Source: Leptospiria bacterium (GTDB lineage Bacteria; Spirochaetota; Leptospiria; Turneriellales; CBDBES01). Taken from it: a stretch of DNA of 64,000 bases. Of the stretch, positions 10,631-30,507 are shown in pieces; the first letter of the stretch is position 1, and the number at the start of each line of letters is the position of its first letter. Below the pieces are notes generated by a model. The model had not been told where the DNA came from. It saw only the letters and a list, made by a program, of their open reading frames with translations, and made no database searches. Location of the stretch: contig OZ253494.1 of assembly GCA_965262015.1 (NCBI GenBank), forward strand, positions 1,402,720 to 1,466,719, given 5' to 3'. Both the position numbers and the translations under genes were made by a program.

Positions 10631-11948
10631 ACAAACCTCCTTGTATTTCTTCTGTGTTAGTAAGATTATAAGAAATACCATCAATCATATTATTATTCTC
10701 ATTTTGTTTTTGATTAGAATTAGTATGATGTTCCAACTCATTATTAGAATTATCTAGATTAACATCAAACTGTTTAATGTCATAGCCATCTTCTTTAAGA
10801 TGATTAAGTAAAGTTTCCATTCTGCCTAATAATTCTTTTTGGACGATCGTATTTTCTACCAAAAAATTTCCATTTAAACTACCATCCACTAAAGATAGTT
10901 TCATTGAAATTTTACCTAATTCTTTGGGATATAGTTGGGCACTAAACATAGCATTATCTTTATCTTTGACCAACATTTTTGATTTTAAAATAAAACTTTG
11001 TAGTTGCTTACCTATCTCGCTACTAGTAAACTTATTATTCATTAATTGTTTGAATAGTGGTTGCATTATCTTTTGTTTGCCTTGCATAATATTAATGGCA
11101 CCATATGCTTTTATACTATTTTTCACTCTAGCAATATTATTTTTAAAGAATTCATTATGTTCTTGATTGCCACTTTTATTAGAGTTAGTGGAAGGATTAT
11201 CCATATTCATGGCCATCATATTTGTTTCACGTGAAACATTTTGAGTTATTTCTGGAACAAACAAACTATTTTTATTCTTTGTTTTATGTGATGAATTATT
11301 AGAACTATCCTCAGTAGTTATCTGTGTAGCTATTGTATTAAATATTTTTTTAGATGCTTGCTGAATAACTTTATGATCTTTATTAGATATGTCTGTGTGG
11401 TTTTCATTTATCTCTATACCATTAGGATCTTCTTTATCTACTTGGTTAGATTTTATATGTGTTTCTAGATCTTCAATAGACGTATGAACAATTGCGTTAG
11501 CCTTAATCTCATTATGTTTTTGCATTGTGACTTCTGGCGTATGTTTTTGCACTGTGACTTCTGGCATATGTTTATGTGCTGTGACTTCTGGCGTATGTTT
11601 GTGTTGTGTTTTGATGGTAGTTGATTGTGGTGCATCTTCATTAGGTATTTTTTGCTTTGTAGCTATTGGAGTATTGTCTATATTTTGTTTTAGAATATCT
11701 GAATCGTTGATAGGTTCCCGCACATTATTATTTTTATCAGCGACTAAATTATGAAAATACGAATCTTGATTTTTTTCAGATATACTATTATTGTTCTTTA
11801 GGTTTTCGCTCTGTATCATTGTTATAAATGAGAGAGGGTTCATAGTAGTTTCCCATTTTGTACGAACCTTGCGTTCTTTGGTAATTTTATTAAGATCTAG
11901 TTGTAGATGATTCTCTTGTTCTACCTTATGTGACAAAGTCTGTACCAT
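10623..11948 (-). CDS. fliK: Flagellar hook-length control protein FliK-like
   Basis: It sits upstream of flgD-flgE and has a low-complexity N/Q/S-rich body. The C-terminal region LYPKELGKISMKLSLVDGSLNGNFLVENTIVQKELLGRMETLLNHLKEDG resembles the Flg_hook domain. Confidence 0.7.
   Translation of the reverse strand: MVQTLSHKVEQENHLQLDLNKITKERKVRTKWETTMNPLSFITMIQSENLKNNNSISEKNQDSYFHNLVADKNNNVREPINDSDILKQNIDNTPIATKQKIPNEDAPQSTTIKTQHKHTPEVTAHKHMPEVTVQKHTPEVTMQKHNEIKANAIVHTSIEDLETHIKSNQVDKEDPNGIEINENHTDISNKDHKVIQQASKKIFNTIATQITTEDSSNNSSHKTKNKNSLFVPEITQNVSRETNMMAMNMDNPSTNSNKSGNQEHNEFFKNNIARVKNSIKAYGAINIMQGKQKIMQPLFKQLMNNKFTSSEIGKQLQSFILKSKMLVKDKDNAMFSAQLYPKELGKISMKLSLVDGSLNGNFLVENTIVQKELLGRMETLLNHLKEDGYDIKQFDVNLDNSNNELEHHTNSNQKQNENNNMIDGISYNLTNTEEIQGGLYA
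11527..11607 (-). repeat. 3 x 27-nt in-frame tandem repeat inside fliK
   Basis: GTGACTTCTGGCRTATGTTTWTGYRCT occurs three times and encodes (H/Q)KH(T/M)PEVT(A/V/M). Confidence 0.85.
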
Positions 11949-12150
11949 ATCCGCCAGCTATCGGCATTTATTTATTTTATTTAACAAAAAATTATATGTA
12001 GTAGATTCTATTTGAATGATGGTGGTTTAATTTAGTTATATTTTTTAAAAATTATATCTCATGAAAGAGAAATACATAGAATCCTTGAATAAGATCAAGA
12101 AGAGTTTACGATATTACAAAGATAATGAGATTCATAAAAAAGCAGGGATT

Positions 12151-12645
12151 GAAGAGCCAGTACCATCTCTGTACAAAATAAACTTGGTTAGCGGTTTTCC
12201 ATTGTAAAGATGGCTTACACATGTTATTAATTATGGTACAAGATCTAAATATATTTTTTTATTTGAACACCTGATCATCTGCCTTTCTGTTAAAATATTT
12301 TTTTAGTTGTTTGATAGAGTTTTTAACCTGCCCTTTTTGTCATGATAAACCCATAGCCAATACATATACAGGAGCATATAGCATTTTCTGTAAATTTATA
12401 AATGATATATTTTCAGTTCCCCTATCACAAATTATCACCCGTATATTTGCCACTCAAGAAAATAAATATTTTCATGTTATATATAAACCTAAAATAAATG
12501 TATATATGAGCTATTTTTCAATAGCTCATATTCTCTAATAAATACTTCTGCATATTTTCATTAGTCATTCTCCTTATTTTTCATCTTTTTAAGAAAAACA
12601 GCTCATGAATACCTTAAACTGTCCAGGGTTGAACTGGCCTTTCAA
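12151..12645 (-). mobile_element. IS30-family remnant (copy 2), internally deleted; forms the left boundary of the array
   Basis: The right-end IR-like GAAGAGCCAGTACCATCTCTGTACAAAATAAACTTGGTTAGC aligns over 42 nt with copy 4 at 52454. It carries a degraded transposase C-terminal region, and the left-end region ends at ...CCAGGGTTGAACTGGCCTTTCAA. Confidence 0.7.
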
Positions 12646-12692
12646 CCAGTTACATAATTTCTTGACTATACACACCTACATCAGATTTATAT

Positions 12693-12727
12693 TTTTCTAA
12701 ATAGGCAGAGCATGCCTATTTAGAAAA
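12693..12727 (+). promoter_or_regulatory. Conserved palindrome/hairpin (15-bp stem, 5-nt loop) ending 8 nt before the start codon of paralog 1
   Basis: The sequence is TTTTCTAAATAGGCA-GAGCA-TGCCTATTTAGAAAA. Copies lie upstream of all four paralogs, and no Shine-Dalgarno is visible between the palindrome and the ATG. Confidence 0.55.
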
Positions 12728-12734
12728 TACAAAT

Positions 12735-14615
12735 ATGAAATACATAAAAAATATGAACACTACGTTAATGAATAGCGTCAATTGGCATCCAAGATGGTCA
12801 TTAGTTATGTGTGTTGGTCTTATGGTATTTATGATCTTTGGCGTATCTCTGTCTACAGGATGTTCTATCACCTTTCCAGGTAGAATAGTCAATCCCCCTC
12901 CCCTCCCTGATATAGATTGCCCTACAGGTATGGCTCGCCTTGCAAATACTTCTAAAAAAACTACAGACACCTGCATGCTTGATGCCGGTGGTGATGGTAT
13001 TCCTAATTCCACGGATACTGATGGCGATGGTATTCCTGATTCCATGGATGTAGATGCTGATGGTGATGGTTTGATAGAGATAAAAACTGCTGAGATGCTA
13101 GATAACATGCGCTATGATTTGGCGGGAACAAGCTATAAGACCTCGGCGACACAAACAACAGGTAATACAGATGGTTGCCCTGCTGTTGGCAGTGGTGGTT
13201 GTAACGGCTACGAACTAACGGCCGACATTGATCTTTTGAGCTTGCTTGATGCCAACGGTAATGGGATGATCGATACGACGATGGAGGGCATTGATAAAAA
13301 TGCCGACGGCGATACTACAGATATCGGTGAGCAAATAACAGTTATTGATACTACTGCAGATACAAGCTGGATGCCTATTGGTGATAATTCGACAAATGAT
13401 GACATAACTCGCTTCACAGGCACTTTTGAGGGCAACAACCATACTATCGCCAACCTTTGGGTGAATATCTCTTCTTCTGCCTCTAACGCCTATGCGGGTT
13501 TGTTTGGCGTGACGGGTGGCACGGTGACCATTCGCAACCTGGAGATTATCGACGGCTCAATTTATTCTTATTCCACGGGTTCTAATTTTAATCCTGTCTC
13601 TGGCGGTCTGGTGGGACTTTCTGCTGCTTCTTTGATGATTATGAATAGTACTTTTAGTGGGTCTGGTGGAGTCTTTTCTTCTGCCGCTGCTAATTCTACT
13701 AATACTCTTTCTCGCTCAGGTGGCATGGTAGGGCAGGCTGATAATACTTTGACGATCATCAAGTGTATTTTTAGTGCATCTGGTGGAGTCTCTTCTTCTT
13801 CTACTAATTCTTCTTCCCGTTCTGATTCTGGTGGTCTAGTGGGTACTTCTTCGTCTTTAACAATAACCAATAGTACTTTTAGTGGGTTAGGTGGGGTTTC
13901 TTCTTCCTCTACCGCTACTACTACTCTTCGTGATTCTCTTGCAGGCGGTATTGTTGGTTTTCCTACTGGTATCTCAACTATCACCAATTCGTATTTTAGT
14001 GGATCTGGTGGAGTCTCTTCTTCTTCTACGACTACCGATTCTTATGTTGGCGGTCTGGTGGGGACTAGTAATGCTTCTTTCATGATCAAAAATAGTTATT
14101 TTTCTGGGTTTGGTGATATCTTTTCTTTTGCTTCTGGTGGGTCGTCTATATCAGGTGGTCTGGTTGCTCACAGTCACCATGGCACTCCTTTAACGATCAT
14201 CAATAGTTATTTTAGTGGATCTGGTAAAGTCTCTTCTTCTACCTCAGGTTCTGTATCTTATTCAGGTGGTCTGGTGGGTCGTTCTACTGCTTCTTTGACG
14301 ATCACAAACAGTTATTGGAATACAGAGACATCTCAAAGTGTGGGAGGCTCTCCCCAAAACCCAAAACGGGCACAGGGTAATGCTGCGATGAACCCATCAG
14401 GCACAACTGGCCTCACCTTAGTGCAACTGCAAGCTATCACTGGCATACACCCATCTGGTCTGCCACATAGTGCCACCGACGACACCAAAGCGTGGGACCT
14501 TGGCACCGATATGCAATTACCTGCGGTTAAGCTGTGTATCCCCACGATCACAAGCGGTGTCGCTAACTGGGCGATATGTGCATCATACGGCACTCTGCTT
14601 GCCGGGCAAAGATAG
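12735..14615 (+). CDS. Surface lipoprotein paralog 1: TSP3-like Ca-binding module plus 7 GLUG-type repeats
   Basis: This 626-aa protein has a signal peptide ending LSTGC (Cys43). It carries one DCPTGMARLANTSKKTTDTC loop and the DTDGDGIPDSMDVDADGDG motif, then a core FTGTFEGNNHTIANLW...GLFG. Seven GG(L/M/I)VG...I.NS.FSG.G repeats follow, and the C-terminus is NSYWNTET...WDLGT..QLPAVKLC...LLAGQR. Confidence 0.85.
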   Translation: MKYIKNMNTTLMNSVNWHPRWSLVMCVGLMVFMIFGVSLSTGCSITFPGRIVNPPPLPDIDCPTGMARLANTSKKTTDTCMLDAGGDGIPNSTDTDGDGIPDSMDVDADGDGLIEIKTAEMLDNMRYDLAGTSYKTSATQTTGNTDGCPAVGSGGCNGYELTADIDLLSLLDANGNGMIDTTMEGIDKNADGDTTDIGEQITVIDTTADTSWMPIGDNSTNDDITRFTGTFEGNNHTIANLWVNISSSASNAYAGLFGVTGGTVTIRNLEIIDGSIYSYSTGSNFNPVSGGLVGLSAASLMIMNSTFSGSGGVFSSAAANSTNTLSRSGGMVGQADNTLTIIKCIFSASGGVSSSSTNSSSRSDSGGLVGTSSSLTITNSTFSGLGGVSSSSTATTTLRDSLAGGIVGFPTGISTITNSYFSGSGGVSSSSTTTDSYVGGLVGTSNASFMIKNSYFSGFGDIFSFASGGSSISGGLVAHSHHGTPLTIINSYFSGSGKVSSSTSGSVSYSGGLVGRSTASLTITNSYWNTETSQSVGGSPQNPKRAQGNAAMNPSGTTGLTLVQLQAITGIHPSGLPHSATDDTKAWDLGTDMQLPAVKLCIPTITSGVANWAICASYGTLLAGQR

Positions 14616-14700
14616 ACGACTGCCATCCAGTGATGCTCTACTCGCTGGGCGAAGATAAGCATTACCGACAATAGTACTGAGGATAAAGTAACCAAAGGGC

Positions 14701-15066
14701 TTGCTAGGATTAAAAGAAACTGGTGTTTCAGCACCCACGACAAGTTATGGATTCGGCACTGCAACTGGAGAAATGGATGGTGGATATGGTACCTCCATTC
14801 CATCAAGCATAGGTAGTGCAGGAACTGCAACGGAGCGTGCTGCTAAGTTGACGTCAAGCGACGTTGATGTATCATCGTGGAATGATGTTAGTCAAAACAC
14901 CAAAGGTGCTTGGAACTTCGGTACCCTTATGCAAATCCCTGCCCTTAAATACGCCGACTATGACGGTACTGGTACTATATTCTATTGCAACAGTGTTATG
15001 TCTACACCTACAACTGGAATTCCTATTCCTAACTGTGGTGAATTCATCCCTGGACAGGCTAGGTAG
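14701..15066 (+). CDS. Hypothetical 121-aa ORF homologous to the C-terminal domain of the lipoprotein paralogs (possible domain relic)
   Basis: It has a TTG start. Its C-terminus TKGAWNFGTLMQIPALKYADYDGTG..FYC...IPNCGEFIPGQAR parallels TKAWDLGTASQLPAVKLC...CASYGALLAGQR. An identical copy lies at 23702-24067. Confidence 0.35.
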   Translation: MLGLKETGVSAPTTSYGFGTATGEMDGGYGTSIPSSIGSAGTATERAAKLTSSDVDVSSWNDVSQNTKGAWNFGTLMQIPALKYADYDGTGTIFYCNSVMSTPTTGIPIPNCGEFIPGQAR

Positions 15067-15175: not shown

Positions 15176-15215
15176 TATTATTTGCAAAATTTAGATTAGA
15201 TTTTTATTTTCTTTT

Positions 15216-15245
15216 AACGGTGTTGGTTCTTGTACCAACACCGTT
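15216..15245. repeat. Perfect 12-bp-stem hairpin (AACGGTGTTGGT-TCTTGT-ACCAACACCGTT) inside the inter-IR segment
   Basis: I read it directly, and copies lie at 21346-21375 and 24217-24246. It is absent from the unit 2/3 junction. Confidence 0.8.
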
Positions 15246-15271
15246 ATTCATGTTGATTGATCCTGTAAAAT

Positions 15272-15505
15272 CGAGAAATTAGCATTTGCTCTGGACAGAA
15301 ATAGGCCTGGCTTAGCCTAGTATCTTTATCTCATAAAAGACAGCAGATTTTGATAGATTTATTTTATGAGCTATTTTTCAATAGCTCATATTCTCTAATA
15401 AATACTTCTGCATATTTTTATTAGTTATTCTCCTTATTTTTCATCTTTTTAAGAAAAACAGCTCATGAATACCTTAAACCGTCCAGGGTTGAACTAGCCT
15501 TTCAA
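15272..15505 (-). mobile_element. MITE-like IS30 derivative at the unit 1/2 boundary
   Basis: The right-end IR-like ...CTCTGGACAGAAATAGGCCTGGCTTAGCC is joined directly to the IS 5' region (GAGCTATTTTTCAATAGCTC...AAGAAAAACAGCTCATGAATACCTTAAACCGTCCAGGGTTGAACTAGCCTTTCAA). There is no transposase ORF. Confidence 0.6.
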
Positions 15506-15550
15506 CCAGTTACACAATTCTTGACCATACACATCTACTTAGGTGCATGG

Positions 15551-15583
15551 CTTCTAAATAGGCAGAGTATGCCTATTTAGAAG
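15551..15583 (+). promoter_or_regulatory. Conserved leader palindrome (14-bp stem) upstream of paralog 2
   Basis: The sequence is CTTCTAAATAGGCA-GAGTA-TGCCTATTTAGAAG. The outer stem pair C:G replaces the T:A of units 1 and 3, so both arms changed. Confidence 0.55.
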
Positions 15584-15591
15584 ATACAAAT

Positions 15592-18111
15592 ATGAAATAC
15601 ATAAAAAATATGAACACTACGTTAATGAATAGCGTCAATTGGCATGCAAGATGGTCATTAGTTATATGTGTTGGTCTTATGGTATTTATGATCTTTGGCG
15701 TATCTTTGTCTACAGGATGTTCTATCACCTTTCCAGGTAGAATAGTCAATCCCCCTCCCCTCCCCGATGTAGATTGCCCTACAGGTACGGCTCGCCTTGC
15801 AAATACTTCTAAAAAAACTACAGACACCTGCATGCTTGATGCTGATTCCGATGCTCCTGATGTAGATTGCCCTACGGGTATGGCTCGCCTTGCAAATGCT
15901 TCTAAAAAAACTACAGACACCTGCATGCCCGATACTGATGGTGACGGTACTCCTGATGTAACTTGTCTTATGGGCACCATTCGTTTGGCAGGTACTTCTA
16001 TAAATACTATGGACACTTGTGTCCCCGATGATGACGGCGATGGTATTCCTGATTCCATGGATGTAGATGCTGATGGTGATGGTTTGATAGAGATAAAAAC
16101 TGCTGAGATGCTAGATAACATGCGCTATGATTTGGCGGGAACAAGCTATAAGACTAAGGCTCAGGACTTAGCGGGTGAAGATGGTAATACAGATGGTTGC
16201 CCTGCTGTTGTTAGTAGCAGTGGAGATTGTAACGGCTACGAACTAACGGCCGACATTGATCTTTTGAGCTTGCTTGATGCAAATGGCAATGGGATGATTG
16301 ATACGACGATGGAGGGCATTGATAAAAATACTGACGGCGATACAACAGATGCAGGTGAGCAAATAACAGTTATTGATATAGGTACGGGCAAAGACAAAAG
16401 TTGGGTGCCCATTGGTACTACTGGCACGGAGAACAGCTTCACAGGCACTTTTGAAGGCAATAACCACACCATCGCTAACCTTTGGGTGAATATCTCTTCT
16501 TCTAGCTCTACTGTTTATGCGGGTTTGTTTGGTCTAGCGGGTGGCCCGAGCATTCGTAATGTGGGGGTTATTTCAGGTTCAATTCACGCTTTTTCTTCTG
16601 ATTCTTCTTCTGAGTCTTATTCAGGCGGTTTGGTGGGTTATTCTGGGAGTACTTTGAGTATTACGAATAGTTATTTTAGCGGTGGGGGTGGAGTTTCTTC
16701 TAATTCTTATTCTAATTCAGGCGGTTTGGTGGGTTATTCTGGGAGTACTTTGACAATAACGAATAGTTATTTTAGCGGTGCGGGTGGAGTTTCTTCTGCT
16801 TCTTCTTCAGGCGGTTTGGTGGGTTATTCTGGGAGTACTTTGAGTATTACGAATAGTTATTTTAGTGGTGTGGGTGGAGTTTCTGATTCTTCTGCTTTTC
16901 GTTCTTCTTCAGGCGGTTTGGTGGGTTATTCTGTGGGGAGTACTTTGAGTATTACGAATAGTTATTTTAGCGGTGGGGGTGGAGTTTCTTCTTCTACTTC
17001 TTCTAGTTCCTCTGAGTCTTATTCAGGCGGTTTGGTGGGTTATTCTAGAAGTACTTTGATAATAACGAATAGTTATTTTAGCGGTGGGGGTGGAGTTTCT
17101 ACTTCTTCTGCTTTTCGTTCTTCTTCAGGCGGTTTGGTGGGTTATTCTGAGAGTACTTTGAGTATTATGAATAGTTATTTTAGCGGTGTGGGTGGAGTTT
17201 CTTCTGATTCTTCTTCTTCTAATTCAGGCGGTTTGGTGGGTTATTCTGGGAGTACTTTGAGTATTACGAATAGTTATTTTAGCGGTGCGGGTGGAGTTTC
17301 TTCTGCTTCTTCTTCAGGTGGTTTGGTGGGTTATTCTGGGAGTACTTTGAGTATTACGAATAGTTATTTTAGTGGTGTGGGTGGAGTTTCTGATTCTTCT
17401 GCTTTTCGTTCTTCTTCAGGCGGTTTGGTGGGTTATTCTGGGAGTACTTTGAGTATTACGAATAGTTATTTTAGCGGTGGGGATGGAGTTTCTTCTAATT
17501 CTACTACTTCTTCTTCTAATTCAGGCGGTTTGGTGGGTTATTCTCAGAGTGGGAGTACTTTGATGATTATGAATAGTTATTTTAGCGGTGGGGGTGGAGT
17601 TTCTTCTAATTCTACTACTTCTTCTTCTAATTCAGGCGGTTTGGTGGGTTATTCTGTGGGGAGTACTTTGAGTATTACGAATAGTTATTTTAGCGGTGGG
17701 GGTGGAGTTTCTTCTAATTCTACTACTTCTTCTTCTAATTCAGGCGGTTTGGTGGGTTATTCTGTGAGTACTGTGAGTACTTTGACGATTACGAATAGTT
17801 ATTGGGACAACAGTGTGCCTCAAAGTGTAGATGGCTCTCCCCAAAGTCTGCGGGTCGTGGGTAGCTCTTCGACGAATCCAATGGGTGCAACTGGTCTCAC
17901 CTTAACGCAACTACAAGCTATCACTGTTAGCACTACAAGTGCCCCATCCCCATCTGGTTTGCCACATAGTGCCACTGATAATACCAAATCTTGGGACCTA
18001 GGCACCGCAAGCCAGCTACCTGCGGTTAAGTTATGCGTTAGCCCCACGGTTAGCAGCACCAACGTTGTAACATGTGCGTCATACGGTGCTCTGCTTGCCG
18101 GGCAACGATAG
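15592..18111 (+). CDS. Surface lipoprotein paralog 2: three Cys-loop/TSP3-like modules plus 12 GLUG-type repeats
   Basis: This 839-aa protein has the same signal peptide and LSTGC as paralog 1. It carries three (V/I)DCPTG.ARLAN.SKKTTDTC-type modules and 12 copies of GGLVGYS.STL.I.NSYFSG.GGVS with Ser-rich spacers. Confidence 0.85.
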   Translation: MKYIKNMNTTLMNSVNWHARWSLVICVGLMVFMIFGVSLSTGCSITFPGRIVNPPPLPDVDCPTGTARLANTSKKTTDTCMLDADSDAPDVDCPTGMARLANASKKTTDTCMPDTDGDGTPDVTCLMGTIRLAGTSINTMDTCVPDDDGDGIPDSMDVDADGDGLIEIKTAEMLDNMRYDLAGTSYKTKAQDLAGEDGNTDGCPAVVSSSGDCNGYELTADIDLLSLLDANGNGMIDTTMEGIDKNTDGDTTDAGEQITVIDIGTGKDKSWVPIGTTGTENSFTGTFEGNNHTIANLWVNISSSSSTVYAGLFGLAGGPSIRNVGVISGSIHAFSSDSSSESYSGGLVGYSGSTLSITNSYFSGGGGVSSNSYSNSGGLVGYSGSTLTITNSYFSGAGGVSSASSSGGLVGYSGSTLSITNSYFSGVGGVSDSSAFRSSSGGLVGYSVGSTLSITNSYFSGGGGVSSSTSSSSSESYSGGLVGYSRSTLIITNSYFSGGGGVSTSSAFRSSSGGLVGYSESTLSIMNSYFSGVGGVSSDSSSSNSGGLVGYSGSTLSITNSYFSGAGGVSSASSSGGLVGYSGSTLSITNSYFSGVGGVSDSSAFRSSSGGLVGYSGSTLSITNSYFSGGDGVSSNSTTSSSNSGGLVGYSQSGSTLMIMNSYFSGGGGVSSNSTTSSSNSGGLVGYSVGSTLSITNSYFSGGGGVSSNSTTSSSNSGGLVGYSVSTVSTLTITNSYWDNSVPQSVDGSPQSLRVVGSSSTNPMGATGLTLTQLQAITVSTTSAPSPSGLPHSATDNTKSWDLGTASQLPAVKLCVSPTVSSTNVVTCASYGALLAGQR
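16621..17805 (+). repeat. Intragenic near-identical 90-114-nt tandem repeats (12 units) with a 507-nt higher-order duplication
   Basis: The unit TCAGGCGGTTTGGTGGGTTATTCTGGGAGTACTTTGAGTATTACGAATAGTTATTTTAGCGGTG.GGGTGGAGTTTCT recurs. Repeats 2-3 (from 16717) recur almost base-for-base as repeats 7-8 (from 17224). Confidence 0.9.
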
Positions 18112-18125
18112 ACGACTGCCATCCA

Positions 18126-18229
18126 GTGATGCTCTACTCACTGGGCAAAGATAAGCATTGCCGACCGATAGTACTGAGTGATGCTCTATTCACTGGGCGA
18201 AGATAAGCACTGCCGACCGATAGTACTGA
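18126..18229 (+). repeat. 2 x 52-nt tandem copy of a stop-containing tail motif derived from the gene 3' terminus
   Basis: GTGATGCTCTAYTCACTGGGCRAAGATAAGCAYTGCCGACCGATAGTACTGA occurs twice here. Single copies lie in units 1, 3 and 4. It encodes SDAL(L/F)TG(Q/R)R*, compare the gene end YGALLAGQR*. Confidence 0.8.
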
Positions 18230-18407
18230 GGATAAAGTAACCAAAGGTGCTTGGAATTTTGGCACCCTTATGCAAATCCCTGCCCTTAAATACGCCGACT
18301 ATGACGGTACTGGTACTATATTCTATTGCAACAGTGTTATGTCTACACCTACAACTGGAATTCCTATTCCTAACTGTGGTGAATTCATCCCTGGACAGGG
18401 TCGGTAG
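18207..18407 (+). pseudogene. Truncated relic of the downstream C-terminal-domain module (unit 2)
   Basis: It reads ...STEDKVTKGAWNFGTLMQIPALKYADYDGTGTIFYCNSVMSTPTTGIPIPNCGEFIPGQGR*. It lacks the 208 nt present in units 1 and 4 between the direct repeats ACCAAAGG, and it has no usable start codon. Confidence 0.6.
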
Positions 18408-18470
18408 AAGGTGGTGAAAGAGATCATCACCTCCTGCTTAAGAATATATCTGCAGGGCTTTAAGAAATTA

Positions 18471-18702
18471 AGCATTAGAGCTGAACAGAGCCAAAACAAT
18501 AGACCTGGCTTAGCCTAGTATCTTTATCTCATACAGGACAGTAGATTTTGATAGATTGATTTTTTGAGCTATTTTTCAATAGCTCATATTCTCTAATAAA
18601 TACTTCTGTATATTTTGATAAGCTGTTCTTCCTGAATCTTATTATTTAAGAAAAACAGCTCATGAATACCTTAAAACATCCAGGGTTGAACTTGCCTTTC
18701 AA
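18471..18702 (-). mobile_element. MITE-like IS30 derivative at the unit 2/3 boundary (single IR copy, hairpin segment deleted)
   Basis: AGCATTAGAGCTGAACAGAGCCAAAACAATAGACCTGGCTTAGCCTAG is followed directly by the IS 5' region, ending ...CCAGGGTTGAACTTGCCTTTCAA. Confidence 0.6.
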
Positions 18703-18749
18703 CCAGTTACATAATTTCTTGACTATACACACCTACATCAGATTTATAT

Positions 18750-18784
18750 TTTTCTAAATAGGCAGAGCATGCCTATTTAGAAAA
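18750..18784 (+). promoter_or_regulatory. Conserved leader palindrome (15-bp stem) upstream of paralog 3
   Basis: The sequence TTTTCTAAATAGGCA-GAGCA-TGCCTATTTAGAAAA is identical to the unit 1 copy. Confidence 0.55.
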
Positions 18785-18791
18785 TACAAAT

Positions 18792-20936
18792 ATGAAATAC
18801 ATAAAAAATAAGAATACTACGTTAATGAATAGCGTCAATTGGCATCCAAGATGGTCATTAGTTATGTGTGTTGGTCTTATGGTATTTATGATCTTTGGCG
18901 TATCTTTGTCTACAGGATGTTCTATCACCTTTCCAGGTAGAATAGTCAATCCCCCTCCCCTCCCTGATATAGATTGCCCTACGGGTATGGCTCGCCTTGC
19001 AAATACTTCTAAAAAAATTACAGACACCTGCACGCTTGATGCCGATTCCATTAATACGGATGATGACGGCGATGGTATTCCTGATTCCATGGATGTAGAT
19101 GCTGATGGTGATGGTTTGATAGAGATAAAAAATGCCGTGATGCTAGATAACATGCGCCATGATCTATCGGGTACCAGCTATAAGACTAAGGCTCAGGACT
19201 TAGCGGGTGAAGATGGTAATACAGATGGTTGCCCTGCTGTTGTTAGTGGCAGTGGTGGTTGTAACGGCTACGAACTAACGGCCGATATTGATCTTTTGAG
19301 TTTGCTTGATGCCAACGGTAATGGGATGATCGATACGACGATGGAGGGCATTGATAAAAATGCTGACGGCGATACGACAGATGCAGGTGAGCAAATAACA
19401 GTTATTGATATAGGTACGGGAAAAGATAAAAGTTGGGTGCCCATTGGTACCGTTGGCACGGGGAAAAGCTTCACAGGCACTTTTGAAGGCAATAACCACA
19501 CCATCGCTAACCTTTGGATGAATAGCTCTAATGTCTATACGGGCTTATTTGGTGTAACGGGTGGCACGGTGGCCATTCGCAATGTGGGGGTTATTTCAGG
19601 TTTAATTCACGTTTCTTCTTCTAATTCTGGTTCAGGCGGTTTGGTGGGTTATTCTGGGAGTGGGAGTACTTTGACAATAACGAATAGTTATTTTAGTGGT
19701 GCGGGTGGAGTTTCTTCTCCTTATTCTGCTTCTTATTCAGGCGGTTTGGTGGGTTATTCTGGGAGTGGGAGTACTTTGACAATAACGAATAGTTATTTTA
19801 GTGGTGCGGGTGGAGTTTTTTCTGCTTCTGGTTCAGGCGGTTTGGTGGGTTATTCTGGGAGTACTTTGACAATAACGAATAGTTATTTTAGCGGTGGGGG
19901 TGGAGTTTCTTCTTCTAATTCTTCAGGCGGTTTGGTGGGTGTTTCTGAGAGTACTTTGACAATAACAAATAGTTATTTTAGCGGTGGGGGTGGAGTTTCT
20001 TCTGTTTCTTCTTCTTCTAATTCTTCAGGCGGTTTGGTGGGTTATTCTGGGAGTATGAGTACTTTGATAATAACGAATAGTTATTTTAGCGGTGGGGGTG
20101 GAGTTTCTTCCTCCTCTTCTTCTTATTCTTATTCAGGCGGTTTGGTGGGTTTTTCTGAGAGTACTTTGAGTATTACGAATAGTTATTTTAGCGGTGGGGG
20201 TGGAGTTTCTTCCTCCTCTTCTTCTTATTCTTATTCAGGCGGTTTGGTGGGTTTTTCTGGGAGTACTTTGAGTATTACGAATAGTTATTTTAGCGGTGGG
20301 GGTGGAGTTTCTTCCTCCTCTTCTTCTTCTGTTGCTACTGCTTCTTCTTCTTCAGGCGGTTTGGTGGGTTTTTCTGGGGGTACTTTGAGTATTGCGAATA
20401 GTTATTTTAGTGGTGAGGGTGGAGTTTCTACTACTACTTCTTCTTCTTCTTCTTATTCAGGCGGTTTGGTGGGTTATTCTGGGAGTACTTTGAGTATTAC
20501 GAATAGTTATTTTAGCGGTGGGGGTGGAGTTTCTTCCTCCTCTTCTTCTTCTTCTCATTCAGGCGGTTTGGTGGGTTCTTCTCAGAGTGGGAGTACTTTG
20601 ATGATTATGAATAGTTATTGGAACACAGACGCCCCTCAAAAAATAACTAATGGAATGACTGATCAAAGCCCAAAGCTGGCAGTGGGTAACTCTTCGACGA
20701 ATCGAATGGGTACAACTGGTCTCACCTTAACGCAACTACAAGCTATCACTGTTAGTACTACAAGTGCCCCATCCCCATCTGGTTTGCCACATAGTGCCAC
20801 TGATAATACCAAAGCTTGGGACCTAGGCACCGCAAGCCAGCTACCTGCGGTTAAGTTATGCGTTAGCCCCACGGTTAGCAGCACCAACGTTGTAACATGT
20901 GCATCATACGGTGCTCTGCTTGCCGGGCAACGATAG
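18792..20936 (+). CDS. Surface lipoprotein paralog 3: one Cys-loop/TSP3-like module plus 10 GLUG-type repeats
   Basis: This 714-aa protein has the same signal peptide and LSTGC. It carries 10 copies of GGLVG(Y/F/V/S)S..STL.I.NSYFSG.GGVS. Its C-terminal 90 aa are nearly identical to paralog 2. Confidence 0.85.
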   Translation: MKYIKNKNTTLMNSVNWHPRWSLVMCVGLMVFMIFGVSLSTGCSITFPGRIVNPPPLPDIDCPTGMARLANTSKKITDTCTLDADSINTDDDGDGIPDSMDVDADGDGLIEIKNAVMLDNMRHDLSGTSYKTKAQDLAGEDGNTDGCPAVVSGSGGCNGYELTADIDLLSLLDANGNGMIDTTMEGIDKNADGDTTDAGEQITVIDIGTGKDKSWVPIGTVGTGKSFTGTFEGNNHTIANLWMNSSNVYTGLFGVTGGTVAIRNVGVISGLIHVSSSNSGSGGLVGYSGSGSTLTITNSYFSGAGGVSSPYSASYSGGLVGYSGSGSTLTITNSYFSGAGGVFSASGSGGLVGYSGSTLTITNSYFSGGGGVSSSNSSGGLVGVSESTLTITNSYFSGGGGVSSVSSSSNSSGGLVGYSGSMSTLIITNSYFSGGGGVSSSSSSYSYSGGLVGFSESTLSITNSYFSGGGGVSSSSSSYSYSGGLVGFSGSTLSITNSYFSGGGGVSSSSSSSVATASSSSGGLVGFSGGTLSIANSYFSGEGGVSTTTSSSSSYSGGLVGYSGSTLSITNSYFSGGGGVSSSSSSSSHSGGLVGSSQSGSTLMIMNSYWNTDAPQKITNGMTDQSPKLAVGNSSTNRMGTTGLTLTQLQAITVSTTSAPSPSGLPHSATDNTKAWDLGTASQLPAVKLCVSPTVSSTNVVTCASYGALLAGQR
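19632..20622 (+). repeat. Intragenic near-identical tandem repeats (10 units) with (TCT)n-rich spacers
   Basis: The repeat consensus is the same as in paralog 2. Spacers contain TCTTCTTCTTCT... runs of variable length. Confidence 0.9.
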
Positions 20937-21000
20937 ACGACTGCCATCCAGTGATGCTCTACTCACTGGGCAAAGATAAGCATTGCCGACCGATAGTACT

Positions 21001-21197
21001 GAGGATAAAGTAACCAAAGGGCTTGGAGCTTTGTCACTGGTAAAATCCCTGCCCTTAAATACGCCGACTATGCAGACTATGACGGTACTGGTACTACATT
21101 CTATTGCAACAGTGTTATGTCTACACCTGCAACGGGAATGGGAATGCCCATGCCCATTCCTAACTGTGGTGAATTTATCCCTGGACAGGGTCGGTAG
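21001..21197 (+). pseudogene. Frameshifted relic of the downstream C-terminal-domain module (unit 3)
   Basis: The homologous frame reads ...IPALKYADYADYDGTGTTFYCNSVMSTPATGMGMPMPIPNCGEFIPGQGR*. A 4-nt length difference upstream breaks the frame, so the track ORF 20983-21207 is in a different frame. Confidence 0.55.
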
Positions 21198-21401
21198 AAG
21201 GTGGTGAAAGAGATCATCACCTTCTGCTTAAGAATATATCTGCAGGGCTTTAAGGAATTGAGCGTTAGAGCTGAACAGAGCCAAGAAAGGTAGACCTGGC
21301 TTAGCTATTATTTGCAAAATTTAGATTAGATTTTTATTTTCTTTTAACGGTGTTGGTTCTTGCACCAACACCGTTGTTCATGTTGATTGATCTTGTAAAA
21401 T

Positions 21402-21634
21402 CAAGAAATTAGCATTGGCTCTGGACAGAAATAGACCTGGCCTAACCTCGTATCTTTATCTCATAAAAGACAGCAGATTTTGGTATATGTATATATGAGC
21501 TATTTTTCAATAGCTCATATTCTCTAATAAATACTTCTGCATATTTTTATTAGTTATTCTCCTTATTTTTCATCTTTTTAAGAAAAACAGCTCATGAATA
21601 CCTTAAACCGTCCAGGGTTGAACTAGCCTTTCAA
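21402..21634 (-). mobile_element. MITE-like IS30 derivative at the unit 3/4 boundary
   Basis: It has the same architecture as 15272-15505, and an extra IR copy lies at about 21261-21305. Confidence 0.6.
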
Positions 21635-21679
21635 CCAGTTACACAATTCTTGACCATACACATCTACTTAGGTGCATGG

Positions 21680-21712
21680 CTTCTAAATAGGCAGAGTATG
21701 CCTATTTAGAAG
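21680..21712 (+). promoter_or_regulatory. Conserved leader palindrome (14-bp stem) upstream of paralog 4
   Basis: The sequence CTTCTAAATAGGCA-GAGTA-TGCCTATTTAGAAG is identical to the unit 2 copy. Confidence 0.55.
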
Positions 21713-21720
21713 ATACAAAT

Positions 21721-23616
21721 ATGAAATACATAAAAAATATGAACACTACGTTAATGAATAGCGTCAATTGGCATCCAAGATGGTCATTAGTTATGTGTGT
21801 TGGTCTTATGGTATTTATGATCTTTGGCGTATCTTTGTCTACAGGATGTTCTATCACCTTTCCAGGTAGAATAGTCAATCCCCCTCCCCTCCCCGATGTA
21901 GATTGCCCTACAGGTACGGCTCGCCTTGCAAATACTTCTAAAAAAACTACAGACACCTGCATGCTTGATGCCGATTCCGATGCTCCTGATGTAGATTGCC
22001 CTACGGGTATGGCTCGCCTTGCAAATGCTTCTAAAAAAACTACAGACACCTGCATGCCCGATACTGATGGTGACGGTACTCCTGATGTAACTTGTCTTAT
22101 GGGCACCATTCGTTTGGCAGGTACTTCTATAAATACTATGGACACTTGTGTCCCCGATGATGACGGCGATGGTATTCCTGATTCCATGGATGTAGATGCT
22201 GATGGTGATGGTTTGATAGAGATAAAAACTGCTGAGATGCTAGATAACATGCGCTATGATTTGGCGGGAACAAGCTATAAGACCTCGGCGACACAAACAA
22301 CAGGTAATACAGATGGTTGCCCTGCTGTTGGCAGTGGTGGTTGTAACGGCTACGAACTAACGGCCGATATTGATCTTTTGAGTTTGCTTGATGCCAACGG
22401 TAATGGGATGATCGATACGACGATGGAGGGCATTGATAAAAATGCTGACGGCGATACGACAGATGCAGGTGAGCAAATAACAGTTATTGATACTACTGCA
22501 GATACAAGCTGGATGCCTATTGGTGATAATTCGACAAATGATGACATAACTCGCTTCACAGGCACTTTTGAGGGCAACAACCACACCATCGCCAACCTCT
22601 GGGTGAATATTTCTTCTTCGGATAACGCCCATGCGGGTTTATTTGGCGTAACGGGTGGAACAACGGTGACCATTCGCAATGTGAGTGTCATTTCAGGCTC
22701 AATTCATTCTTCTGCTACTTCTGCTTCTGGTCAATCTAATGCAGGCGGTTTGGTGGGACTTTCTACTGCTTCTTTAATAATAAGTGATTGTACTTTTTCT
22801 GGATCGCTTGGGGTCTCTACTTCTAATAATGCTGGCGGTCTAGTGGGTGCGTCTGGTGCTCCTTTAATAATAAGCAATTGTACTTTTTTGGGGTCGGGTG
22901 ATATCTCTTCTTCTAATCAAAGTGGTTCTTCTGCTGGTGGTCTGGTGGGGTGGATTAGTTCTTCTTTGACAATCACTAATTCCATTTTTTCTGGGTCGGG
23001 TGATATCTCTGCTTCTGCTTCTAATGGTTCTACTCATTCTGGCGGTCTGGTGGGGTGGATGAGTTCTTCTTTGACAATCACTAATTGCATTTTTTCTGGG
23101 TCGGGTGATATCTCTGCTTCTTCTCCTTCTGCTTCTAATAGTTCTATTGTTGGCGGTTTGACTGGTCACGCTTACTCTACCTCTCCCGTTTCTTGGACAA
23201 TTACTAATTGCAGTTTCTTTGGCTCTGGTCAAATCTCTTCTATGGGTACTAATAGTTTTACTGTTGGCGGTTTGATTGGAACTACTAACAGTTCTTTGAC
23301 GATAAGAAACAGTTATTGGAACAAAGATGCCATCCAAAGAGTGGGTGGCTCTAACCAAAGCCCCAAGAGGGCGAAGGGTGACGCTTCTTCAGATCCATCT
23401 GGCACGATTGGCCTCACCTTAGTAGAACTGCAAGCTATTACTGGCATACACCCATCTGGTTTGCCACATAGTGCCACCGACAGCACCAAAGCTTGGGACC
23501 TAGGCACTGCAAGCCAGCTACCCGCTATTAAGCTGTGTATTCCCACCATCACAAGCGGTGTCACCGATTGGACGATGTGTGCGTCATACGGTGCTCTGCT
23601 TGCTGGGCAACGATAG
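21721..23616 (+). CDS. Surface lipoprotein paralog 4 (chimeric): three Cys-loop/TSP3-like modules plus 6 divergent GLUG-type repeats
   Basis: This 631-aa protein has a 5' part of about 470-560 nt almost identical to paralog 2. Its central region is of the paralog 1 type with a paralog 3 patch. It carries six GGL(V/T/I)G...I(S/T)N(C/S).F.GSG.IS repeats. Confidence 0.85.
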   Translation: MKYIKNMNTTLMNSVNWHPRWSLVMCVGLMVFMIFGVSLSTGCSITFPGRIVNPPPLPDVDCPTGTARLANTSKKTTDTCMLDADSDAPDVDCPTGMARLANASKKTTDTCMPDTDGDGTPDVTCLMGTIRLAGTSINTMDTCVPDDDGDGIPDSMDVDADGDGLIEIKTAEMLDNMRYDLAGTSYKTSATQTTGNTDGCPAVGSGGCNGYELTADIDLLSLLDANGNGMIDTTMEGIDKNADGDTTDAGEQITVIDTTADTSWMPIGDNSTNDDITRFTGTFEGNNHTIANLWVNISSSDNAHAGLFGVTGGTTVTIRNVSVISGSIHSSATSASGQSNAGGLVGLSTASLIISDCTFSGSLGVSTSNNAGGLVGASGAPLIISNCTFLGSGDISSSNQSGSSAGGLVGWISSSLTITNSIFSGSGDISASASNGSTHSGGLVGWMSSSLTITNCIFSGSGDISASSPSASNSSIVGGLTGHAYSTSPVSWTITNCSFFGSGQISSMGTNSFTVGGLIGTTNSSLTIRNSYWNKDAIQRVGGSNQSPKRAKGDASSDPSGTIGLTLVELQAITGIHPSGLPHSATDSTKAWDLGTASQLPAIKLCIPTITSGVTDWTMCASYGALLAGQR

Positions 23617-23701
23617 ACGACTGCCATCCAGTGATGCTCTACTCGCTGGGCGAAGATAAGCATTACCGACAATAGTACTGAGGATAAAGTAACCAAAGGG
23701 C

Positions 23702-24067
23702 TTGCTAGGATTAAAAGAAACTGGTGTTTCAGCACCCACGACAAGTTATGGATTCGGCACTGCAACTGGAGAAATGGATGGTGGATATGGTACCTCCATT
23801 CCATCAAGCATAGGTAGTGCAGGAACTGCAACGGAGCGTGCTGCTAAGTTGACGTCAAGCGACGTTGATGTATCATCGTGGAATGATGTTAGTCAAAACA
23901 CCAAAGGTGCTTGGAACTTCGGTACCCTTATGCAAATCCCTGCCCTTAAATACGCCGACTATGACGGTACTGGTACTATATTCTATTGCAACAGTGTTAT
24001 GTCTACACCTACAACTGGAATTCCTATTCCTAACTGTGGTGAATTCATCCCTGGACAGGCTAGGTAG
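23702..24067 (+). CDS. Hypothetical 121-aa C-terminal-domain-like ORF (identical copy of 14701-15066)
   Basis: The protein sequence in the track is identical to that of 14701-15066. Confidence 0.35.
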   Translation: MLGLKETGVSAPTTSYGFGTATGEMDGGYGTSIPSSIGSAGTATERAAKLTSSDVDVSSWNDVSQNTKGAWNFGTLMQIPALKYADYDGTGTIFYCNSVMSTPTTGIPIPNCGEFIPGQAR

Positions 24068-24272
24068 AAGGTGGTGAAAGAGATCATATCACCTTCTGCT
24101 TAAGAATATATCTGCAGGGCTTTAAGGAATTGAGCGTTAGAGCTGAACAGAGCCAAAACAATAGACCTGGCTTAGCTATTATTTGCAAAATTTAGATTAG
24201 ATTTTTATTTTCTTTTAACGGTGTTGGTTCTTGTACCAACACCGTTGTTCATGTTGATTGATCCTGTAAAAT

Positions 24273-24506
24273 CGAGAAATTAGCATTTGCTCTGGACAGA
24301 AATAGGCCTGGCTTAGCCTAGTATCTTTATCTCATACAGGACAGTAGATTTTGATAGATTGATTTTTTGAGCTATTTTTCTATAGCTTATATGTTCTAAT
24401 AAATCCTTCTGTATATTTTTATTGGCTGTTCTACTTATTTTTCATCTTTTTAAGAAAAACAGCTCATGAATACCTTAAACCGTCCAGGGTTGAACTGGCC
24501 TTTCCA
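24273..24506 (-). mobile_element. MITE-like IS30 derivative closing the array
   Basis: It has the same architecture as the other boundary elements but is more diverged (GAGCTATTTTTCTATAGCTTAT). It ends ...CCAGGGTTGAACTGGCCTTTCCA. No leader palindrome follows it. Confidence 0.55.
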
Positions 24507-29577: not shown

Positions 29578-29898
29578 ATGAATAGTTTTTTTGACATGAA
29601 GTCTTTGTTGTCTCAGATAGGCCCTTTGCAGAAGTATGCTAGTAAATGGGAAAGTACTTTAAAAAATATTACAGCTAAATCCGAGACAGGTGGTGGCATG
29701 GTGAAGGTTGTAGTAAATGGTGAAGGTCACTTGATAGATTTGGTAATTGATACCCAATTACTAGAAAAAGATGAAATAGTTGTTTTACCCCGCCTTATTA
29801 AAGAAGCTATTAATGACGCACAAACAAAAGTTAAACAAGAAGTGAATAATAAATTAAAAGATTTGGCGACTGAATTACCTTTTAATATGACTTCATAA
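29578..29898 (+). CDS. ybaB: Nucleoid-associated protein YbaB/EbfC
   Basis: This 106-aa protein contains GGGMVKVVVNGEGHLIDLVID and lies immediately upstream of recR, which is the conserved pairing. Confidence 0.85.
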   Translation: MNSFFDMKSLLSQIGPLQKYASKWESTLKNITAKSETGGGMVKVVVNGEGHLIDLVIDTQLLEKDEIVVLPRLIKEAINDAQTKVKQEVNNKLKDLATELPFNMTS

Positions 29899-30507
29899 AT
29901 GTTATCTGATTTTTTACATACAGCTAAATTTTTTTCCTCATTGCCTGGTATTGGGCATGCATCAGCTTACAGGATAGCATTTTATTTATTAAAACAACCT
30001 CAAAAAAATATTCAGCACTTCGCCGACCAGCTTGTTAAATTTCATGCGAATATTCAATATTGTGTTATATGTGGTGCTTTAAAGGAGACAATGCAAAAAT
30101 GTGTATATTGTTGCTCTGAAGAAAGGGATAAAACAATTCTTTGTGTCGTCGAAGAACCCTCAGATATCTACCTAATAGAAGAGACAAATATTTTTCGAGG
30201 AATTTATCATGTAATCATGGGAGCTTTGTCTCCAATAGAAGGTATAACACCAGAGGATTTACGCATCAAAGAACTTATCTATCGTGTAAAAGAAGAATCA
30301 CCTATTGAAGAGATAATTTTAGCAACCAATCCAACTATAGAAGGCAATGCCACAGCATACTATATCATAGAAACGTTAAAGCAATACAAGCCTAATATGC
30401 GTTTCAGCCGCATTTCTAGTGGTCTGGCCATGGGATCTAAGCTTGATTACGCTGATGTTCATATATTAGCTGATTCTATAGAAAATCGCAATATTATTCA
30501 TGTCTGA
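29899..30507 (+). CDS. recR: Recombination protein RecR
   Basis: It has LPGIG, the zinc finger CVICGAL...CVYC, and a Toprim-like region ILCVVEEPSD. Confidence 0.9.
   Translation: MLSDFLHTAKFFSSLPGIGHASAYRIAFYLLKQPQKNIQHFADQLVKFHANIQYCVICGALKETMQKCVYCCSEERDKTILCVVEEPSDIYLIEETNIFRGIYHVIMGALSPIEGITPEDLRIKELIYRVKEESPIEEIILATNPTIEGNATAYYIIETLKQYKPNMRFSRISSGLAMGSKLDYADVHILADSIENRNIIHV

Follow-up and report, generated by a model that had tools for sequence, protein, structure and literature searches.

The window analysed here, a stretch of 64 kb from a contig with a G+C content of 35%, carries a tandem array of four paralogs on the forward strand, all encoding putative lipoproteins that have GLUG repeats (PF07581) and LSTGC at the end of a lipoprotein-type signal. 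Paralog 1 (12735..14615; lipobox LSTGC) encodes a protein of 626 aa, followed by paralog 2 (15592..18111) with 839 aa, paralog 3 (18792..20936) with 714 aa, and paralog 4 (21721..23616) with 631 aa. The array is flanked by a fliK-like gene, flgD, and flgE on one side and by fabD, fabG, and fabF on the other, and AroC displays 58-62% identity to Leptospiraceae and Turneriella proteins, which, together with FlaA on a related contig, identifies the source as an uncultured member of the Leptospirales. An exact look-up of the four paralogs in the protein collection revealed no entries, and no match to the N-terminal 99 aa emerged from a further protein search. The greater length of paralogs 2 and 3 can be attributed to at least ten near-identical internal repeats of 90-117 nt (16590-17785 and 19604-20604), which encode S-rich GLUG units. 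Behind the last ~40 nt of each paralog (...LLAGQR stop), this tail recurs in one or two degenerate tandem copies (14577-14699, 18073-18247, 20898-21020, and 23578-23700; repeat families D17 and D20).

A preliminary description of this DNA had regarded the spacers between the genes as IS fragments, but they turned out to be remnants of the C-terminus of a second GLUG subfamily. The only sizeable spacer ORF (14701-15066, repeated at 23702-24067) matches the C-terminus of P0035, a GLUG paralog of this second type from the same genome, with 71% identity over 107 aa (E 2e-47), and neither a Pfam transposase match to the spacer ORF nor a plasmid match to the spacer was found. Partial copies of the remnant are located at 18240-18427 and 21150-21284. 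Probably, the body of a P0035-like gene was replaced first and the resulting unit was then duplicated, which gave rise to the array. In the scanned ORFs of the 64 kb window, no transposase or recombinase domains were detected, and no regulator gene was found adjoining the array.

Ahead of all four genes lies a conserved leader block on the forward strand (12505..12734 before unit 1; 15366-15591, 18566-18791, and 21494-21720 before units 2-4). Across this leader of ~230 bp and the first 250 bp of the coding sequence, units 1 and 3 share 98% identity and units 2 and 4 share 100%. A fifth, truncated leader copy (24369-24505) ends before the TTGAC box and the palindrome described below, which agrees with the earlier statement that the element is absent after the fifth fragment. 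The leaders also contain a second conserved hairpin, ATATGAGCTATT-TTTC-AATAGCTCATAT, with a stem of 10-12 bp about 200 nt upstream of each paralog (12504-12531, 15365-15390, and 21493-21520; in unit 3 near 18569-18592), of which a degenerate fifth copy is found at 24369-24392. In the leader block, a short ORF on the minus strand (MTNENMQKYLLENMSY, identified by eye) was discarded as a candidate, its start and Shine-Dalgarno (SD) sequence not being conserved in unit 3.

The palindrome at the four gene starts

Immediately upstream of each of the four genes, the forward strand carries a perfect palindrome, which exists in two classes. Units 1 (12693..12727) and 3 (18750..18784) have the same class A sequence, TTTTCTAAATAGGCA-GAGCA-TGCCTATTTAGAAAA, with a perfect 15-bp stem (arms 12693-12707/12713-12727 and 18750-18764/18770-18784) and the loop GAGCA. 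Units 2 (15551..15583) and 4 (21680..21712) share the class B sequence, CTTCTAAATAGGCA-GAGTA-TGCCTATTTAGAAG, with a perfect 14-bp stem (arms 15551-15564/15570-15583 and 21680-21693/21699-21712) and the loop GAGTA. The palindrome can also be written as TCTAAATAGGCA-N5-TGCCTATTTAGA. Its presence before the four lipoprotein genes is real. The core TAAATAGGCA-N5-TGCCTATTTA occurs four times in the window (12698, 15555, 18755, and 21684) and not once in dinucleotide-preserving shuffles of it, and perfect stems of at least 10 bp, of which a shuffled window contains about one, lie nearly all within the lipoprotein array in the real window. Owing to the within-pair identity of 98-100%, the four copies represent only two independent sequences; the palindrome of 14-15 bp formerly noted before every paralog is thus borne out as four perfect stems, but in two distinct sequences.

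All pairs of the stem are Watson-Crick pairs, with no G:U among them, and folding of the 35-mers as RNA, a check already envisaged in the preliminary description, gave -18.7 and -20.7 kcal/mol with a z of about -7. The right arm ends 7 nt before the ATG in units 1 and 3 (TACAAAT) and 8 nt before it in units 2 and 4 (ATACAAAT), so that the uniform distance of 8 nt given before holds for the latter pair only. As had been stated, there is no SD between the right arm and the ATG in any of the units 1-4. The contrast drawn at that time with clear SDs of neighbouring genes was selective, for an SD-like motif precedes only about 7-10 of the 44 other ORFs in the window (longest-ORF starts), and the source genome appears to rely largely on SD-independent initiation. 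The gene for ribosomal protein S1 is located at 46699-48420.

A strong hairpin between tandem genes might serve as a terminator or insulator, or might represent a small mobile palindromic element (REP, MITE, or IS end), in line with the IS-derived repeats proposed earlier; we consider this very improbable. An intrinsic terminator was rejected, as no T-run follows the stem (the tail is TACAAAT on the plus strand and ATATAAAT on the minus strand), and no terminator-like sites were called in 11900-12900. Separate terminator-like hairpins of 12-13 bp, richer in G+C, already follow three of the four genes, namely units 1 (15215-15246), 3 (21346-21375), and 4 (24217-24246), with none called between units 2 and 3, which suggests that at least those three genes are separately terminated transcription units. 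A mobile element would be expected to show transposase or IS similarity, of which none was found, and to be dispersed; copies in the 64 kb window are confined to the four gene starts, and the five related loci introduced below have none. The dispersed IS repeat that would have spoken against the original claim is therefore not what the window and the related contigs contain.

A scan of a genome collection (without the source genome) for TAAATAGGCA-N3-7-TGCCTATTTA returned 61 loci, which were rejected as relatives and hence give no support to a mobile element either: they comprise Clostridium-type terminator hairpins and a repeat of a gammaproteobacterial MAG, with other loops and flanks. Scans of JGI metagenomes revealed no match to the palindrome, and two metagenome matches to the TTGACA box pattern were set aside because of their unrelated contexts. 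The gammaproteobacterial repeat, built around TAAATAGGCA-N4-TGCCTATTTA, is present in at least eight copies on contig OZ251218.1 (L007, L014, L017, L025, L034, L042, L049, and L053), has conserved flanks (ATTGCCATGTTAATA... and ...CGCCCAATAAAATTCGGCGCAATTC), and resembles a MITE or IS end. With the palindrome studied here, to which it is unrelated, it has only the 10-bp arms in common. The covariance models of Rfam 15 produced no gathering-level match in the whole window and, in 12200-12900, only chance-level matches of miRNA-type hairpins far below threshold.

The four genes are mosaics of one another. Leader and 5' coding sequence are shared by units 1 and 3 (12588-12887/18645-18944) and by units 2 and 4 (15365-15664/21494-21793), and ~300 nt further in the partners are units 1 and 4 (13014-13313/22156-22455) and units 2 and 3 (16027-16326/19059-19358), which points to gene conversion among the four paralogs. 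A hairpin or cruciform at the 5' border of each gene that stalls replication or is nicked could seed such conversion or unequal exchange and in this way promote surface-protein diversity. Besides the mosaic itself, the remnants of the other GLUG subfamily among which the genes sit are consistent with this idea, as are an octamer tract in the signal-peptide region of a relative, which suggests a variable family, and the inverted repeats of Borrelia vlsE, which always lie beside the expression site and are thought to help gene conversion (PMC11499132). Nevertheless, the identity breakpoints (~12590-12650 and ~+250-290 of the coding sequence) do not coincide with the palindrome, and the window contains no recombinase gene, so we deem a role as a recombination aid distinctly improbable. 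Moreover, 35 bp is small for a nuclease-targeted palindrome. A site-specific recombination switch of the Xer/invertase or Mycoplasma vpma/vsa type was likewise rejected: no recombinase domain was detected, and the four sites are in direct orientation, so that site-specific exchange would only delete genes. Every paralog also keeps its own TTGAC box, unlike the single shared promoter of such switches.

Promoter candidates and the two palindrome classes

Upstream of the unit 1 palindrome, a candidate -35 element is the TTGACT box at 12662..12667 on the forward strand, a homologue of the TTTCTTGACA box found in all related leaders. It recurs as TTGACT in unit 3 (18719-18724) and as TTGACC in units 2 and 4 (15521-15526 and 21650-21655). 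Downstream of the box, neither class has a convincing sigma-70 -10 hexamer, class B being the poorest. An alternative promoter-like site, TTGAAC-N18-CATAAT, is located at 12629..12658 on the same strand and, if used, would place the whole palindrome in the transcript. Should the TTGAC box be the -35 element, the expected start of transcription is at about 12697-12699. The RNA would then lack the outer pairs, the covarying one among them, and an operator or cruciform acting at the DNA level would be favoured.

Control of this kind, by an operator for a dimeric regulator or by a supercoiling-sensitive cruciform that modulates promoter activity, with co-regulation of the four genes, appears rather unlikely to us, though a number of features fit it. 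Counted from the TTGAC box, the palindrome begins 25 nt downstream and, with the box as the -35 element, would cover the start site, the classic position of a repressor; in the form of an operator, the inner half-sites would be TAGGCA-N5-TGCCTA with centres 11 bp apart, and the palindrome would overlap or abut the core promoter or start. The dyad symmetry is perfect and free of G:U, and a stem consisting of Watson-Crick pairs throughout is more typical of a DNA-level palindrome, or of a recent inverted copy, than of an RNA stem under long selection. Folding of the 35-mers with DNA parameters gives about -13.6 kcal/mol, and the ColE1 cruciform (13-5-13) has shorter arms. On the other hand, few natural operators show perfect symmetry over 15 bp, contacts as far as 13-14 bp from the dyad are uncommon, and a compensated change that far out is not expected for a protein site. 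There is no regulator gene beside the array, the half-site is not enriched elsewhere in the window and is missing from the related loci, and control at the DNA level leaves the loss of the SD, described below, unexplained.

The compensated change emerges from a comparison of the two classes, whose 35-mers differ at four of 35 columns (1, 2, 19, and 34). Columns 2 and 34 form the second-from-outer pair, T:A in units 1 and 3 and C:G in units 2 and 4; the change in both arms formerly described is therefore genuine, but it affects the second and not the third pair. In column 1, units 2 and 4 have G opposite A and lack the outermost pair, and column 19 is a position of the loop. Because units 1/3 and 2/4 are recent copies, the covariation from T:A to C:G counts as a single event, and the covariation base for a structured RNA amounts to two distinct sequences with one compensated pair. 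As compensatory support, the use to which it had been put, this change carries less weight, and it is by itself no proof of selection, as template switching can produce such changes too.

The classes diverge more strongly in the palindrome (4/35) than in the 5' coding sequence (6/258), and the chance of keeping a stem of at least 14 bp under random substitution is 0.003-0.01. That the stem was kept despite the greater divergence suggests either selection on pairing or templated mutation, and the palindrome may be seen as a natural test case for these two sources of compensatory stem changes. Directly 5' of the core lies a hypervariable patch (12680..12694, forward strand), in which seven of 14 aligned positions differ between class A and class B (12680-12692) and from which the divergence continues into stem positions 1-2 (12693-12694). 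In class A, this patch belongs to an extended inverted repeat (12681..12738, forward strand) of 24 pairs with three 1-nt interruptions: 12681-12707 pairs with 12713-12738, and the right arm takes in the start codon at 12735-12737. Unit 3 has the same extended repeat at 18738-18795, whereas in the class B counterpart of the patch (15537-15551) the outer helix is gone. The predicted probability of an unpaired AUG at 37 C is 0.30 for class A and 0.58 for class B; in silico, heating above 45-55 C gradually opens the extension over the AUG. In stem positions 1-2, it is class B that is similar to L067 g3, the closest related leader, but in the patch it is class A that is similar to the remaining related leaders, and the two similarities point in different directions for the polarity of the change between the classes.

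Homologous leaders in related Leptospirales contigs

A protein search led to contigs of ENA analysis ERZ26693861, one of which encodes the spirochaete protein FlaA, and five loci were compared. Of the handles L062-L067 used below, L065, L066, and L067 refer to long-read contigs of 2x coverage that may contain errors. The closest homologues of the protein body, L062 and L063, have different N-termini and no palindrome. A homologous N-terminus (M-Q/E/K-Y/C-I-K-K/N/R-M...) together with a homologous leader was found in seven genes, namely those of L064, L065, and L066 and genes g1, g2, g3, and g5 of L067. All seven leaders keep the TTTCTTGACA (TTGACA) box, and five of them carry the strong SD GGGGGA 5-6 nt before the first ATG; g5 of L067 has GGGAGA, and g3 has AAGGGA at the SD position and ACG in place of the first ATG. 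This placement of the SD supports the first ATG (12735) as the ancestral start of the studied genes.

The palindrome of the array is absent from all seven homologous leaders. The closest of them, that of L067 g3, aligns without gaps and shares the loop and inner right arm (GAGCATGCCT) as well as CAAATA, but at the position of the palindrome it forms only seven of 15 Watson-Crick pairs, in a contig of 2x coverage, and its AAGGGA corresponds to AGAAAA or AGAAGA in the array. From the alignment with the SD-bearing leaders it follows that the outer right arm occupies the former SD site. Judging from this alignment, the perfect palindrome and the loss of the SD are linked, derived features of the array. 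In L067 g3 itself (11660-11680), GCATGCCT pairs with AAGGGATGC in a small hairpin that would extend over the SD but whose fold is not significant (z -1.3).

A perfected stem of this kind may also be a neutral by-product. The leader would then be a quasi-palindrome hotspot, in which template switching could have perfected the inverted repeat and extended it over the old SD, and duplication and gene conversion could have spread the result to four genes; we rate this reading as plausible but rather unlikely. Template switching is described to create perfect stems in one event, along with multibase 'compensatory' changes (PMC8794818; PMC7202029). The clustered differences between classes A and B, in the patch abutting the stem, are the pattern that such events leave, the closest outgroup leader is imperfect, and neither the homologous leaders found nor public collections contain the element; active gene conversion is evident from the mosaic paralogs. 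The change in both arms would then be a templated correction and not a trace of selection. What argues against neutrality is that a hairpin of about -20 kcal/mol located 7-8 nt from the starts of intact ORFs of 626-839 aa is unlikely to be without effect, that the stem survived more sequence divergence than its flanks, and that the relatives repeatedly have a second, unrelated palindrome at a comparable position.

This second palindrome, differing in sequence from that of the array, is situated between box and SD: its stem is a perfect 10 bp in L065 (ACTTGACCTA/TAGGTCAAGT), has nine of ten pairs in L066 and eight of nine pairs in L067 g5, and measures 7 bp in L067 g3. Since the palindromes of the relatives differ in sequence, structure is favoured over a sequence-specific protein site, and an operator would call for different regulators in the different leaders. 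The overlap of the relatives' palindrome with the predicted -10/+1 region nevertheless fits control at the DNA level. The palindrome of the array could, like those of its relatives, be a DNA-structure element, a hairpin or cruciform, that couples promoter output to supercoiling or seeds gene conversion, a reading that strikes us as improbable. If it were true, the element would be a counterpart of the ospC and vlsE inverted repeats in free-living Leptospirales and would suggest that variable spirochaete lipoprotein families use structure-prone leaders as a general device.

The related loci show further features of GLUG genes. L067:7929-17910 contains a tandem array of five GLUG paralogs, and in L066:5225-5352 about 16 tandem octamers CCTTACGT lie within the part of a homologous GLUG lipoprotein gene that codes for the signal peptide, forming a candidate tract for slipped-strand phase variation (in a 2x contig). 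In three of the related loci (L067:7929-17910, L065:1-7447, and L066:1856-5056), GLUG genes adjoin type I restriction-modification genes, with HsdR in all three and HsdM in two.

A proposed leader hairpin and its counterparts in other systems

Taken as a whole, the palindrome is probably an element of local expression control, known from one gene array. The explanation we prefer, with considerable reservation, is that of a hairpin in the transcribed leader which would restrict or gate initiation at the first AUG, thereby throttling translation, and which may protect the 5' end of the mRNA. In this reading, the palindrome is a lineage-specific cis element in the shared leader of four recombining GLUG-lipoprotein genes and most likely acts after transcription. 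In the 5' UTR it would form a stem-loop of about -19 to -21 kcal/mol, the 3' arm of which spans -8 to -22 and so takes the place of the homologues' SD. Because an SD is missing from most genes of this genome, it is presumably an open start region rich in A/U on which initiation depends, and a hairpin abutting the AUG should lower or gate initiation; the same hairpin may shield the mRNA 5' end. The helix of class A (units 1 and 3), running over 24 pairs, is predicted to bury the AUG, whereas in class B (units 2 and 4) the 14-bp core alone would form and leave the AUG free.

A 5'-UTR hairpin gating initiation had already been considered in the preliminary description, alongside an operator for a dimeric regulator; the arm at the SD site, the class A helix over the AUG, the recurrence of structure and not of sequence in related leaders, and the promoter-like site at 12629-12658 strengthen the hairpin proposal, but the arguments originally brought forward for it have become weaker. 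As the copies are homogenised by gene conversion and form a single array in one genome, their conservation is weak evidence. Furthermore, codons 7 and 12 are in-frame AUGs located in open sequence, and the annotated start of P0035 is the equivalent of codon 12, so that a block of the first AUG may matter little and only shift the start. If the hairpin is functional, a recombining surface-lipoprotein family would set different expression levels for near-identical paralogs, and a hairpin would have replaced the ribosome-binding site in a genome mostly without SD. The scope is narrow, covering one array in one genome of a little-known uncultured Leptospirales lineage.

Palindromes of this kind are known before spirochaete lipoprotein genes, and the one described here is a lineage-specific leader palindrome of a recombining lipoprotein family. 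The closest parallel to a leader hairpin is found within the same order, in L. interrogans, where the paralogous surface lipoprotein genes ligA and ligB have an identical leader through duplication, with a common stem-loop that sequesters SD and AUG and was validated by compensatory mutations (PMC7821625). Similarities include the location of the stem-loop at the ribosome-binding region and, for class A, a start codon within the helix. There is no sequence similarity. The lig stem masks an SD that is present and opens at the temperature of the host, whereas the array, known from sequence alone, has lost the SD, and its core is predicted to be folded up to 75 C. An RNA thermometer of the lig, ROSE, or fourU type was therefore rejected, the perfect core still being the minimum-energy structure at 75 C and no SD being present.

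For control at the DNA level, the parallel is B. burgdorferi ospC, which also has an inverted repeat before a spirochaete lipoprotein gene. For this operator, pairing potential was found to outweigh sequence in importance, and a mechanism based on DNA structure or supercoiling was proposed (PMC3700930). The ospC repeats lie upstream of the promoter, whereas the palindrome studied here lies between the candidate promoter and the ATG, and the sequences are unrelated. The Borrelia vlsE locus also combines a variable surface lipoprotein with gene conversion and inverted repeats, the latter being conserved between lineages in neither sequence nor position, and in one species a perfect 122-bp palindrome was reported at vls (PMC11499132). 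The vls system consists of one expression site and promoterless silent cassettes arranged head to head, with much longer repeats (PMC11499132), whereas our array comprises four complete genes in direct orientation, each with a palindrome of 35 bp. Quasipalindrome template switching (PMC8794818, PMC7202029) accounts for the perfect stems and for clustered and both-arm changes in one step; it concerns mutational origin and not function, and is compatible with any functional reading.

The CIRCE element, the operator of HrcA, is a near-perfect inverted repeat (TTAGCACTC-N9-GAGTGCTAA) between promoter and start codon, upstream of heat-shock operons, and acts both as DNA operator and as mRNA hairpin. 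Consensus and spacer differ from those of the palindrome, which has arms of 10-15 bp and N5, and CIRCE controls chaperones instead of lipoproteins; with the sequence TTCTAAATAGGCA-N5-TGCCTATTTAGAA ahead of lipoprotein genes, the palindrome deviates from the consensus, and CIRCE was rejected. A gene for a nucleoid-associated DNA-binding protein of the YbaB/EbfC type, followed by recR, is located at 29578-30507 of the window; in Borrelia, the palindromic binding sites of EbfC lie near the erp lipoprotein genes.
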